DNA of 64,000 nt from an uncultured delta proteobacterium (GTDB taxonomy: Bacteria; Myxococcota_A; Polyangia; Fen-1088): the NCBI GenBank assembly GCA_963737265.1, contig CAVTRY010000018.1, positions 160,001-224,000 of the forward strand, given 5' to 3'. The notes under the pieces were generated by a model. The model saw nothing but the letters and a program-made list of their open reading frames with translations, did not search any database and was not told the DNA's origin. Numbering within the stretch: position 1 is the stretch's first letter; each line of letters opens with the position of its first letter. A program made the translations under genes and the position numbers. Shown here in pieces: positions 21,796 through 63,677 of this stretch.

Positions 21796-23010
21796 TCACG
21801 GAATCAGAATCGTCGGAATCGCAACCTGGCAGTTGCCGAGCACGGTGAGCCACTTGAGGGTGTTGACCCAGAAAAGCTGCACTTGGTAGTCGGGATGGCT
21901 GGTCCACTCGCTGTTATAGGTAATCCATTCGTCGCCCCAAACGTCCACATGGCCCTTCCCCACTTGCATGGCCTCGCCAACCCGGAAGCTTTCTGCCGGG
22001 TCCGCGGCAGCGGAGCCCATCGCGTACACCGTGAAATTGGATCCCGCGGCTGGACTGGCGGGTCCGCTGACCTCGTAACCGTTGTCGAAGCCCACCGCGG
22101 TGACTCCTGCGGTGATGGGGTGGGTCGCGAACTGCGTAATCGGGACCGAGGTGGCGGCGCCGTTTCTATTTAGTATCTGCGTCTCGCCATAGCTCATTCC
22201 GAAAGGGGCCAGAAGAGCGTTCACATTTACGTTGTCTACCGGAGGATTGGCATAACCCGTCAGGGTCATTAGACCGCCACCGTTGTTTACCCATTCGGAC
22301 AGCACCTGCACCTCTGCTGCGGAGTAGGCCCGGCCCCCTCCGTTCTGATAGACGTCCTGCACCACGATGATGTTGAAAGGATCGATGAGGGTGTGCGTGA
22401 GCACCTGGCTTCCGAGACTCGTTGCGCCGTTGGGGGTTCGCGCAGCGAGCCAGGCACCGAAGACATTACCCTGGCCCCACGTTCCGGGGACGCCCAAGGT
22501 CGCAATGTTGATGCAGTCGCAGATTCCGTCGTTGTTGGCATCGACGTCGTCGACGATGCCGTTGCAATCGTTGTCCTTGCCGTCGCAAACCTCGGGCGTG
22601 GGCGTGCACTGGCAAACGTTGCTGCTCTGCCCGCTCATCGAGCCGCAGGTCCAACCGCTGATGCAGTCCGAATCCCCCGAGCACGGCGTGGAGCACACGC
22701 TCGCGCCGTTGCTTAGCGGGACGCAGATCCCGCCCGGACAACCCGATCCGTCCGAGCATGCGTTGGCCATGGTGCCGCCGCCGCTCGAGCTGGAGCTCGG
22801 CGATCCGCCGGCGGCGCCACCCGCCGGAGGGATGGTGATGGTCACGGCCCCGCCCGAACCGCCGGCGCCGGAAACCACGTTGCTTCCGCCGCCACTGGGA
22901 CCGGAGGCAGCAACCGTGACCGATGCGCTGCTGCAAGCCAGAACCAGAAAGCCTGGCGCGACCAAGAGTGCCAACATCCGATAGTCCAACGCCTTGCGAG
23001 AACAGCCCAT
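21796..23010 (-). CDS. Lipoprotein with Cys-rich repeats, putative metal-binding motif and C-terminal alpha/beta domain
   Basis: Lipobox VLA-C, Gly/Ser linker, CxxDxxC repeats, PEVCDGKDNDCNGIVDD, WVNNGGGLM, HPITAGV. Confidence 0.7.
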   Translation of the reverse strand: MGCSRKALDYRMLALLVAPGFLVLACSSASVTVAASGPSGGGSNVVSGAGGSGGAVTITIPPAGGAAGGSPSSSSSGGGTMANACSDGSGCPGGICVPLSNGASVCSTPCSGDSDCISGWTCGSMSGQSSNVCQCTPTPEVCDGKDNDCNGIVDDVDANNDGICDCINIATLGVPGTWGQGNVFGAWLAARTPNGATSLGSQVLTHTLIDPFNIIVVQDVYQNGGGRAYSAAEVQVLSEWVNNGGGLMTLTGYANPPVDNVNVNALLAPFGMSYGETQILNRNGAATSVPITQFATHPITAGVTAVGFDNGYEVSGPASPAAGSNFTVYAMGSAAADPAESFRVGEAMQVGKGHVDVWGDEWITYNSEWTSHPDYQVQLFWVNTLKWLTVLGNCQVAIPTILIP

Positions 23011-23143
23011 GGTACATCCTTTTTCGTGTCAACTGCCTTGTTCGGCGCGATTCGGCGAATGCCAAAGATCCAAGAGGTCAACGCAACGCCAAACGTCCAG
23101 CCAACCAGTCTATCATGGTTAATCGGGCGTCGTCATGGCGCCC

Positions 23144-23152
23144 GGGCACTCC
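23144..23152 (+). repeat. Left 9-bp target-site duplication GGGCACTCC
   Basis: Identical to 23717-23725. Both copies abut the terminal inverted repeats. Confidence 0.85.
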
Positions 23153-23716
23153 GGGTGCTTCCCTGAAATGGGGGCTGGGGCTTCACCTCGCTGGGATCGG
23201 AAGGAAAGACAGCGAGGAACGGAGGATCCGAGGGATCAAGGGTTGGGTTCACGAGGCGGCGGAGACCCTCGCGAAGTACGGGGACGTGGAAACGAGCAGG
23301 CCAACCGGCAGTCGTAGGAGCTTGAGATAGGTAATGACCTGTGCCAAGTGGACAGGAAGCAACCGTTCTACCGCCTTGACTTCGACCACCAAACGGCCTT
23401 CCACCACGAGGTCGAGGCGATAGCCGCAGTCAAGGTCAAGTCCTTTGTACTGCAGAGGAATCGCGACCTGGTGTTGAGTGCGAAATCCACGCAGGCCTAG
23501 CTCGCGCGCCAGGCAGTGCTCGTAGGCCGACTCAAGCAGCCCCGGACCGAGGTGACGGTGGACTTCGATGCAGGCGGCGATAATTTGCCCAGTAAAGTTA
23601 TGCTGTCTCTGATTCTCCGTTCCTCCCTGTTCCATATCTGCGTTTTCGGCGGCACTCCGCCAGAAGTTGCTACCTCACCGAGCCGCCGGCTGGGCCCCCG
23701 TTTCAGGGATGCACCC
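23153..23716. mobile_element. 564-bp non-autonomous TIR element carrying a GxxExxY gene
   Basis: TIRs 23153-23175 and 23694-23716 match 21/23. Flanked by a 9-bp direct repeat. Inner IRs 23209-23232 and 23607-23630 match 21/24. No DDE transposase. Confidence 0.8.
23249..23635 (-). CDS. GxxExxY protein (PD-(D/E)XK nuclease superfamily), frameshifted near the C-terminus
   Basis: EVHRHLGPGLLESAY, RLDLVVE..VVEVKA, HLAQVITYLK. The family-like tail FHVPVLREGLRRLV lies in another frame after ~23291. Confidence 0.9.
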   Translation of the reverse strand: MEQGGTENQRQHNFTGQIIAACIEVHRHLGPGLLESAYEHCLARELGLRGFRTQHQVAIPLQYKGLDLDCGYRLDLVVEGRLVVEVKAVERLLPVHLAQVITYLKLLRLPVGLLVSTSPYFARVSAAS

Positions 23717-23725
23717 GGGCACTCC
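23717..23725 (+). repeat. Right 9-bp target-site duplication GGGCACTCC
   Basis: Identical to 23144-23152. Confidence 0.85.
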
Positions 23726-61891: not shown

Positions 61892-62431
61892 ATGTCACCT
61901 AGCGATGCTCCCGAGGTCGATCTGCGCTCTTTCATCCGCGACATCCCCGATTTTCCCAAACCGGGGATTCTATTTCGCGATGTCACCCCGTTGCTCGGCA
62001 ACGGACCGGCCTTTCGCACGTGCATCCGGCAGCTGTGCGAGCGACTCGTGCCCCTGAAACCACACGCGATCGCCGGAATCGAATCGCGCGGATTTATTTT
62101 CGGTGCCAGCATCGCGGCCGAGATAGGCGTCGGCTTCATCCCTATTCGCAAACCCGGCAAGCTGCCGTGGAAGACCCGCCAGGAAAGCTACGCCCTCGAA
62201 TATGGTACCGACGCCATCGAAGTCCACGAGGATGCAGTGGCGGGCGTCACGCGCGTGGCGCTTGTCGACGATCTTCTGGCCACCGGCGGGACTGCGGGCG
62301 CCGCCATCAAGCTGCTGCAAGGGCTCGGCGGCCAAGTGGTGGTCGCCGCGTTCGTCATCGAGCTTGCCTTCCTGCACGGGCGAGAACGTCTGGCAGGGAT
62401 TCCTGCCCAGGTAATGATCACGTACACTTAA
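61892..62431 (+). CDS. apt: Adenine phosphoribosyltransferase
   Basis: IPDFPKPGILFRD, RKPGKLP, VDDLLATGGT. Confidence 0.96.
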   Translation: MSPSDAPEVDLRSFIRDIPDFPKPGILFRDVTPLLGNGPAFRTCIRQLCERLVPLKPHAIAGIESRGFIFGASIAAEIGVGFIPIRKPGKLPWKTRQESYALEYGTDAIEVHEDAVAGVTRVALVDDLLATGGTAGAAIKLLQGLGGQVVVAAFVIELAFLHGRERLAGIPAQVMITYT

Positions 62432-62489
62432 GGACACGTTCGGGGCGCGACGCCGCTTGATGACAAGACAGCCCACACAGGGCCGAACG

Positions 62490-63315
62490 TTAGAAACCGC
62501 CTTCCACGCGAATTACGATTTTGCCCCGGGTTGCGCTCTTGCCGAAATCGGCGATGGCTGCCGCAACCTCGCGAATCGGAACCACCTTGGCGATGGGTAT
62601 TTGCATGCCCTCGCGCATTCCTTCCGCCAACCATTGCAAATCGGGGCGCCGCGGTTTCACCATCACCAACTTGCACCTTCTCCGCAGCAAGGGCGAGAGC
62701 AGCAGTCCGCCCACAAAGGCGGCGCTGGGTAGGGTCGTGACGTAAGTCCCGCGCGGCGCAATCAACTTGCGAAATGCCACTACGCCGAAGCCCGCCGCAG
62801 CGTCGAGGATCACGGCATAGCGTTCTTTCACTTCTTTCTGCCAACCCGCGTTCCCGCGGTCGAATACCGTGCGCGCGCCCAGCCCGCGCACGAACGCCAT
62901 CCCCGATGCCGAGCTGACCGCGTCCACCACGCCGCCCAACCTGCTCGCGACGCCGATTGCAACCGAACCCACGCCGCCCTTCGCACCCGTCACCAGCACG
63001 GATTGCCCCGCGCGCATCCGCCCGCAGTCCCGCAGCGCCTGCAAGGCAGTAATTCCCGCCGTGGCGGAAGCAGCGGCGGTCTCGTGGCTAAGCGATTCGG
63101 GCTTGGGTGCCAGGAACGACGCGGGCACTACGGTGAATTCCGCCAAGGCGCCGGACTTGGTGATGCGCGAATAGGCGTGAAAGCCAAATACCTCTTGCCC
63201 AACCTGAAGGCTAGATACGTTAGCCCCCATCTTGTCCACGACGCCCGACACATCCCAACCGACCACCAGCGGGAAGACCTTGGCGTGCAGGATAGTCACC
63301 TTGCCAAGCAGGGTC
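62490..63315 (-). pseudogene. NAD(P)-dependent medium-chain oxidoreductase, 5' end cut by the IS3 element
   Basis: PLVVGWDVSG, GAKGGVG, GKIVI. The frame stays open up to the IS end at 63316 and the N-terminal ~45 aa are missing. Confidence 0.8.
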
Positions 63316-63383
63316 TGAAGTGGACCCCAAAAATGGGACCAGGAGCTAAGGTGTAGTCCGCCTCAACAACGAGGCAGGACACG

Positions 63384-63677
63384 ATGAAAACGAACCGCCA
63401 AAAGCACACAGCACTCTTCAAGGCGCAGGTAGCTCTCGAAGCCATGCGGGAGCAGGCAACGGTTGTGGAGATCGGGCGCCGATACAAGATCAACCCGAAC
63501 CTGGTTCACAAGTGGAAGAAGGAAGCCGTCACACGGCTGGCCATGGTTTTCGAACCAGGCCATGCAAATGCAGAGGAATCGGCGAACGCCGAACGCGAAT
63601 CGGAATTGCTGCGCAAGGTGGGGCAGCTGACGCTGGAGAATGATTTTTTAGCACGCGGGCTCGCGCGCATTCGCTGA
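63384..63677 (+). CDS. IS3 transposase OrfA
   Basis: FKAQVALEA, HTH, WKK, KVGQLTLENDFL. Confidence 0.9.
   Translation: MKTNRQKHTALFKAQVALEAMREQATVVEIGRRYKINPNLVHKWKKEAVTRLAMVFEPGHANAEESANAERESELLRKVGQLTLENDFLARGLARIR

Follow-up and report, generated by a model that had tools for sequence, protein, structure and literature searches.

Probable movement in trans of a GxxExxY gene cassette with ISKra4-type ends in an uncultured delta proteobacterium

Genes of the GxxExxY family (TIGR04256; PF13366, PDDEXK_3) are widespread and often present in several copies, and in the accessible part of PMC3424549 a table gives the function of the family as 'Unknown'. The genome of the uncultured delta proteobacterium considered here (G000; 6.55 Mb in 25 contigs, with an estimated contamination of 7.6%) has 43 matches to PF13366, some of which are fragments of one copy, compared to 1-9 in the other 19 positive genomes among the 151 sampled. 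How does one genome come to hold so many of these genes? The window analysed here is a stretch of 64 kb (G000:C18:160001-224000; coordinates below are positions of this window unless a contig is named), and it contains one GxxExxY gene inside a short unit with inverted ends. It is very probable that this unit is a decayed copy of an approximately 579-bp mobile insertion cassette (MIC) that has no transposase gene, has ends of the ISKra4 type (prokaryotic Mutator-like, DDE), carries the GxxExxY gene as a passenger, and is moved in trans by a transposase of the ISKra4 family. The original prediction, made from the letters of the window alone, had proposed a transposase-free cassette mobilised in trans by a DDE enzyme and named Mutator-like elements as one option; the further copies, their target-site duplications and the insertion sequence (IS) described below as ISX all support it.

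The copy in the window is 564 bp long (23153-23716), and its predicted architecture was confirmed: 23-bp ends that are complementary to each other at 21 of 23 positions (91%), flanked by an exact 9-bp duplication. The end downstream of the open reading frame (ORF) is called the T-end in the following, and the end upstream of it the C-end (Table 1). A degenerate 23-mer pattern describing these ends has two matches in the window, compared to none in 100 dinucleotide shuffles. The single GxxExxY ORF that had been read inside the unit is likewise confirmed, with 127.2 bits for PF13366 PDDEXK_3 (cut-off 22) and 128.8 bits for TIGR04256 (cut-off 35). Two features go beyond the original prediction. 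The first is a second, inner inverted repeat (23209-23232 and 23607-23630; 24 nt, 88% complementary). The second is the damage to this copy, which has deletions after 23191 (10 nt), 23291 (4 nt) and 23691 (1 nt) when compared to the other copies; the 4-nt loss shifts the reading frame after approximately residue 113 of what is elsewhere an intact core of 131 amino acids (aa). The window copy belongs to a subfamily of five members defined by an A at position 7 of the C-end. Within the leader of the ORF, the 9-mer GGCACTCCG at 23651-23659 resembles the target-site duplication of this copy, offset by one position, which is probably due to chance.

The evidence that the unit has moved comes from the rest of the host genome. 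The 23-mer end pattern has 73 matches there at up to three mismatches, and a reversed control pattern has none. These matches form 35 inverted pairs, each a complete copy with a usual length of 577-580 bp, and three single ends. Further copies with different 9-bp duplications had been predicted, and this is what was found: identical 9-mers flank 31 of the 35 pairs and include 30 different sequences, while the remaining four pairs comprise one with a 10-bp duplication, two with 7/9 identity and one without a duplication. Each of the 73 end matches is part of a GxxExxY unit, and the other cargos that had been thought possible did not appear among them. Among 31 copies the median pairwise identity is 99.1% (minimum 94.7%), and because of this the copies must be regarded as young. 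Empty sites, also expected, are present in the same genome as two paralogous sequences, and none turned up in other species. For the copy on contig C13 the empty site lies at C11:1328506-1328983 (...CAGCGC GAGAAACAT CGGCACC...), and for the copy on contig C14 at C7:311660-311994 (...GCGG CCGGGACTG GGACGAC...); in both, the 9-mer is present once. An immobile repeat that was dispersed through duplication or recombination, with the 9-mer as part of the repeat itself, would account for the multicopy state and for nothing further. It is refuted by the 30 different flanking 9-mers and by the two empty sites with their single 9-mer, and the similarity between copies stops at the tips of the inverted repeats, which leaves this explanation with a probability close to nil.

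Two of the cassettes are inserted in another multicopy repeat (G000:C7:311200-312200, C11:1328300-1329300 and C14:364300-367400). The ORF of that repeat has a cysteine-rich motif, CKTCH..Y..WSCKGRGFCPSC, which we take to be reminiscent of the N-termini of IS91-type transposases.

The only conserved ORF of the 579-bp unit is the PF13366 gene, and there is no transposase gene within it. Two copies of about 2 kb (G000:C20:14118-16133 and C23:162554-164571) were considered as an autonomous form of the element and rejected, as each of them is a cassette that was hit by a separate, IS4-like element of 1.44 kb. Its insertion point is approximately 12 nt into the 23-bp end, with one case for either kind of end; its own ends are CATAGGCATTAACCC, and its duplication is of about 11 bp. 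The element contains an open frame of 441 codons (429 aa from the first Met) with a YGLRWQIE..K motif, which scores 97.7 bits with NF033592, under the cut-off of 115. Classification of the cassette as a miniature inverted-repeat transposable element (MITE), i.e. as a small and non-coding element, was rejected because of the conserved ORF. It is also not an ISKra4 or p-MULT IS in its own right, since it encodes no p-MULT DDE transposase, and is hence a derivative.

To look for a donor of transposase, the genome was scanned for the 23-mer with up to eight mismatches, which gave 894 matches. Among these, the only inverted pair outside the cassettes with at most six mismatches per end bounds ISX (C20:66979-69098), a single-copy IS of 2120 bp with a 9-bp duplication, GGAAAGCGG, on a contig that also carries two cassettes. 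Its left end agrees with the C-end of the cassette at 19 of 23 bases, and the autonomous IS that the original prediction had anticipated was thus found, with ends that are related to those of the cassette. ISX has two ORFs. The 466-aa ORF matches NF033572, the ISKra4 family transposase, at 256.9 bits (cut-off 205; positions 24-422 of the 422 in the model) and also matches PF06782, and the 144-aa ORF matches no known family. Relatives of the ISX transposase on plasmids reach at most 34% identity, and among the matches listed seven of eight are annotated as ISKra4 family transposase. A second ISKra4-like IS in the genome, ISY, is 1783 bp long and present in 10 full copies and one partial copy with 99.6-99.7% identity; it has the ends GGGTGGGTTGCACGGGTCCGGG and 9-bp duplications, and the transposases of ISX and ISY share 31-33% identity. 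The cassette, ISX and ISY all have GGGTG tips and 9-bp duplications, and neither ISX nor ISY carries a GxxExxY gene.

The distribution of ends and donor among relatives of the host points in the same direction. When 60 relatives were compared, the alignable part of the GxxExxY units of G005 (91% identity) and G009 (approximately 82%) was found to begin at about position 57-66 of the 579-bp unit and to end at about 533-539, and the outer ends were not found on the GxxExxY units of any of these relatives. No close homologue of ISX was found in 45 other genomes of the family, in which only G017 and G214 have a match, at 30-32% identity. As neither the outer ends nor a close ISX homologue was found in the relatives, the cassette ends and the candidate donor co-occur in this lineage only. 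A subterminal motif that is common to the C-end of the cassette (TTCTGGCGGAGTGCCGCC) and ISX (TCTCGGCGGCGGACCGCC) was considered as evidence of descent and rejected, because the end-less homologues of G005 and G009 carry it as well.

It can thus be proposed that an ISKra4-family transposase, supplied in trans, would bind both 23-bp ends, and that the element would then enter a 9-bp staggered cut in the target. ISX is the best candidate for the donor, and its enzyme may well be the acting transposase, judging from the sequences of its ends and its ORF. The same mechanism would hold if the acting transposase were that of ISY, or of an IS with exactly matching ends that was lost or not assembled. 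ISX is single-copy and its ends differ from those of the cassette at 4 of 23 positions, ISY is abundant and has been recently active (as seen from the near-identity of its copies), and the assembly, in 25 contigs, is incomplete. On the other hand, the ends of ISY share little with the cassette past the GGGTG tip (13 invariant columns over six ends), and the assembly contains no other end-like inverted pair at six or fewer mismatches. In a search of 185,579 species genomes, the exact 23-mer was found in just one further record, as a single end. A donor other than ISX is therefore possible, and we consider it rather unlikely.

A perfect single T-end 23-mer is present in G018, from another genus of the same family (L072 / L101 1501-1523; metagenome-assembled genome record JADGRC010000275.1). 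It has no GxxExxY gene and no clear partner end, and could represent either a remnant or a degenerate short MITE.

The choice of target gives a further means of placing the cassette. Flanks were aligned outward from each end, and hexamers were scored as similar to TTGACA when they agreed with it at 4 or more of 6 positions. At the T-end such a hexamer begins exactly 16 nt away in 14/35 copies (TTG in 9), and at the C-end in 6/35 copies (TTG in 7). At each of the other 44 positions, approximately 1.2/35 copies have such a hexamer as background, giving a binomial P of 3.8e-12 for the T-end. Together these are 20 ends, found in 19 of the 35 copies, and a TANNNT motif follows 16-19 nt beyond the hexamer at 8/20 of them, compared to 5/50 ends without the hexamer. 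ISX has TCGACA at 16 nt, and ISY has a hexamer of the TTG- or TGGACA type at the same distance in approximately 9 of 11 copies. In the accessible part of Guerillot et al. 2014 (PMC3942029), the repeats of prokaryotic Mutator-like elements measure 18-39 bp and their duplications 8-9 bp. Part of the group, TnGBS and its related ISs, is described as choosing sites 15-17 nt ahead of a sigma-A -35 box, with a peak at 16 bp in the ISLre2/TnGBS family (p-MULT 3). The cassette behaves like these published cases of ISKra4/ISLre2/TnGBS promoter targeting. By preference, insertion would accordingly leave 16 nt between an end of the element and the downstream -35 box of a sigma-70-type promoter.

Promoter spacing also explains an unusual arrangement on contig C17. 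Here, two cassettes of different subfamilies stand in tandem (G000:C17:62345-63529, with the cassettes at 62354-63520), the 9-mer CCGTGGCGC is present three times, and TTGACC lies next to the pair, 16 nt away. We interpret the arrangement as two insertions at one promoter-defined target, of which the second reused the same 9 bp, and the common 9-mer is explained because both insertions were measured from the same promoter. In the window, the promoter-like site next to the T-end (Table 1) faces a gene on the minus strand (21796-23010).

Is the GxxExxY protein a passenger, or is it part of the machinery? The 131-aa core is intact in 17 of the 35 copies and broken in 13, and the start codon is missing from the other 5. 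Seven of the broken copies have the same frameshift at residue 97, which is also found in an eighth copy that has lost its start as well. Each of these seven is at a different site and has a different duplication. The broken lineage went on transposing, and because copies with one common frameshift sit at different sites, the ORF is not needed in cis. At the level of the protein, the ratios of nonsynonymous to synonymous substitution (dN/dS) are 0.13 compared to G009, 0.36 compared to G005 and 0.33 between subfamilies, the last two based on small counts, which shows purifying selection across species. An alignment of 21 sequences shows no variation at G23, Y29, D66 and E76 and very little at E26 and K78. 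AlphaFold models the protein with confidence (pLDDT 95.4), and the Foldseek neighbours of the model, among them Cas4, lambda exonuclease, Hjc and splicing endonucleases, are all PD-(D/E)XK nucleases, none of them at E <= 0.001. A sequence search of the PDB with this protein gave no match. A search of Rfam gave no match at E <= 1, and a DNA search of the plasmids in PLSDB found nothing.

These properties could also be understood if the nuclease were itself the mobility enzyme, or an obligatory partner such as a TnsA-like cutter of the second strand, and served every copy in trans. A GxxExxY gene is found with each of the 73 end matches, purifying selection acts on the protein with dN/dS as low as 0.13, its residues of catalytic type are conserved in a confidently modelled fold with structural neighbours, though weak ones, of the PD-(D/E)XK type, and GxxExxY genes elsewhere are bracketed by inverted repeats of their own. 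What speaks against the nuclease as a mobility enzyme is that ISX and ISY have the same GGGTG tips, 16-nt spacing and 9-bp duplication as the cassette, and that frameshifted lineages have spread. To our knowledge, moreover, no PD-(D/E)XK protein of about 130 aa is known to make staggered-cut insertions alone. A helper role of the protein, supplied in trans by intact copies, is conceivable and is not required, because both ISs show the same insertion chemistry without a GxxExxY gene, and the same traits fit the properties of a DDE family as given in the accessible part of PMC3942029. A part of the protein in mobility, which the original prediction had raised as a speculation, is thus unsupported, and we think it most improbable. 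In the preferred explanation, that of a passenger on a cassette moved by an ISKra4-family transposase, the nuclease-fold protein would be cargo that is kept by selection as a protein and is not needed in cis for movement, and judging from sequence it would have no part in the transposition reaction. The high GxxExxY copy number of the host is then explained by hitch-hiking on a transposon, as nearly all of its 43 PF13366 matches belong to the cassette.

Intact ORFs (e.g. in the copy at G000:C18:54312-54890) have no stop codon inside the element and at 165 codons read on past the inner arm and the T-end repeat into the flank. In the commoner orientation, the intact ORF points the same way as the adjacent promoter.

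A number of observations weigh against a passenger cassette moved by an ISKra4-family transposase. The 17 intact GxxExxY genes could complement the broken copies in trans, and every occurrence of the cassette ends in the host genome accompanies such a gene. The ends of ISX are not identical to those of the cassette (19/23), ISX is single-copy, and with 25 contigs and an estimated contamination of 7.6% an autonomous element whose ends match exactly could be missing from the assembly. As to the empty site of the window copy, none was found in other species, where only the right-hand ferredoxin gene is conserved and the flanks are not syntenic. The joint across the element was also not seen in contigs of four soil-metagenome runs from one study; in metagenome contigs the element has a depth of about 60 compared to about 3.8 for its flanks, and the best-matching run may be the source sample. 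No RNA run was among the matches listed. With regard to promoter targeting, the hexamer is found in only approximately 19 of 35 copies, its match at the window copy is weak (4/6), and a strict consensus scan for promoters and terminators found 0 sites by the window copy.

Table 1. Features of the window copy and related elements. Positions without a contig name are those of the 64-kb window.
Feature	Position	Strand	Remarks
Left 9-bp target-site duplication, GGGCACTCC	23144-23152		Identical to 23717-23725
T-end, 23-bp terminal inverted repeat, GGGTGCTTCCCTGAAATGGGGGC	23153-23175	+	73 genome matches, reversed control 0
Outer T-end spacer, part of the cassette shell	23176-23199		10-nt deletion in the window copy
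Inner inverted-repeat arm, purine-rich on the plus strand, contains ACAGCGAGGAACGGAGGATCCGAG	23200-23245		Overlaps the 3' extension of the ORF
GxxExxY / PDDEXK_3 ORF, 128 aa	23249-23635	-	Frameshifted after approximately residue 113 in the window copy
Inner inverted-repeat arm	23602-23630		Overlaps the start codon and N-terminal codons (MEQGGTENQ)
ORF leader with short palindrome GGCGGCACTCCGCC, then outer C-end spacer	23636-23693		Sequence
C-end, 23-bp terminal inverted repeat, GCCCCCGTTTCAGGGATGCACCC	23694-23716	-	Inward reading GGGTGCATCCCTGAAACGGGGGC; A-type subfamily
Right 9-bp target-site duplication, GGGCACTCC	23717-23725		Read from sequence
Promoter-like site by the T-end	23107-23136	-	ATGACG 23136-23131, 16 nt off; 18-nt spacer; TAGACT 23112-23107
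ISY	G000:C16:221131-222912 and 9 further full copies; partial copy C18:154050-154989		Partial copy 5 kb before the window
GxxExxY module with inverted arrays, host genome	G000 C22:198320-198790		
GxxExxY loci with inverted arrays, other genomes of the phylum	L074, L092, L076, L077, L093, L078, L080, L081, L083, L084, L094, L095, L073		

The part left unexplained by the cassette is the inner GxxExxY module. The shell that is specific to the host genome consists of only about 45-48 nt at each end, and the approximately 470 bp between are common to other species. The outer T-end spacer has no counterpart in the end-less homologues of other species, which align from about position 44-66 of the 579-bp unit. 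The motif in the arm at 23200-23245 is kept in other genera, and the leader as far as GAAGTTGCT is also present in the end-less homologues of G005 and G009. The module as a whole is the ORF together with inverted arms, rich in purines and in pyrimidines, which reach into the first and last codons of the ORF. Such arms are not confined to the host: in other genomes of the phylum, 13 of the 18 GxxExxY loci with enough flanking sequence have a flanking inverted repeat at z > 8, compared to 0/36 control windows shifted by 950 bp (maximum z 4.2). The arms are arrays of tandem units of 7-10 nt that vary from genome to genome, e.g. CACGGAGGGC, CGCAGAGC, CACGAAA and GCAAAGG.

The host has one other GxxExxY gene (C22:198374-198724), which has no outer ends, has arms of about 50 nt and is located just upstream of recA; the gene on its other side is presumably comM-like. 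Among 13 genomes of the genus (L145-L156), the recA locus has the module in 7 cases, a partial remnant of it in 2 and no module in 3, and the remaining genome, G009, has no match to either flank of the locus. This suggests an old resident in decay. With RNAalifold, columns 25-47 of the recA-locus arms pair with columns 508-530 in a 23-bp outer helix with 6 compensatory pairs, and this predicted covariation would fit an RNA stem and a constraint at the DNA level alike.

The module is also found in other vehicles. G003 and G004 (L133-L142) have many elements of about 430 bp that retain only both ends of the module, with the ORF mostly deleted. These are bounded by different inverted ends of about 35 bp, GGGAACCCT..GAGGGCA.CCCTTTCAAGGTGTT, at which no clear duplication was seen. 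In G069 (L120-L125) there are six copies of a repeated unit in which a truncated transposase-like ORF (ending in ...FRWTYTGRALQA and a stop) is followed at its 3' end immediately by the module, and the unit itself ends at ...CTGTACTAG. The 109-aa remnant beside this module has no NCBIfam match; we assume from its appearance that it is IS630-like. One way to read these observations is that the module of about 470 bp is an unrecognised selfish unit, either placed by its nuclease into palindromic DNA or having arms that are processed as RNA stems. The targets of the nuclease would then be, for example, the centres of MITEs or intergenic hairpins. If true, this would explain why the same module is found in unrelated vehicles (with ISKra4-type ends in the host, with different ends of about 35 bp in two species of its genus, and, in another family of bacteria, in a repeated unit with a transposase-like remnant), and why GxxExxY genes are both sporadic and multicopy across bacteria. 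The idea of a selfish module is in our view improbable. The inner, co-varying repeats around GxxExxY genes are in any case a separate lead on the role of the family.

For a widespread family without an assigned function, the cassette moved in trans provides a concrete and checkable account of its multicopy state. It also extends the published promoter targeting of ISKra4/ISLre2-type elements to a non-autonomous derivative in an uncultured soil lineage. As approximately 35 insertions adjoin likely promoters, numerous host genes may have their expression affected by the element.

How does this cassette compare to known systems? No literature linking GxxExxY or PF13366 to mobile elements was found, and the accessible passages on the family do not concern mobility. 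Judged by titles and the opening lines of abstracts, a description of an ISKra4-derived MIC or MITE was not found either. The view in the original prediction that the architecture is undescribed was nevertheless overstated, as mobile insertion cassettes are already a named class in the accessible parts of PMC6199540 and PMC2266710. Like MICs, the element described here has terminal inverted repeats of an IS type, a duplication of the length of its parent, a passenger gene and no transposase, and is presumed to be mobilised in trans. An example of the class is MIC231 of Bacillus cereus, reportedly described by Chen et al. in 1999. Unlike MIC231, the cassette has ends of the ISKra4 or prokaryotic Mutator type and not of IS231 (IS4 family), is present in approximately 35 copies in one genome and is targeted to promoters, and its cargo is a GxxExxY nuclease-fold gene with inner inverted repeats of its own. 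The cargo protein is a clear member of the GxxExxY / PDDEXK_3 family (TIGR04256, PF13366). For the inner module only, the intervening sequence (IVS) of the Coxiella 23S rRNA offers an analogy, being a small ORF between stem-forming inverted repeats that is called a selfish element in the accessible part of PMC4990558. The module has a different protein family and is not in rRNA, and the resemblance is thus one of likeness, not of membership. With ISKra4 (p-MULT 4) and ISLre2/TnGBS (p-MULT 3), as these are presented in the accessible part of PMC3942029, the cassette shares repeats within the range of 18-39 bp, a 9-bp duplication, and insertion approximately 16 nt ahead of -35 boxes, for which both orientations are used if the repeats are near-perfect. 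Some ISKra4 members are stated there to carry extra genes of unknown function. Unlike ISKra4 and the other p-MULT elements, the cassette has no transposase gene, which makes it a derivative of them. Its architecture is that of a named class, the mobile insertion cassettes, and its ends, the length of its duplication and its choice of target place it with the ISKra4 / p-MULT elements.

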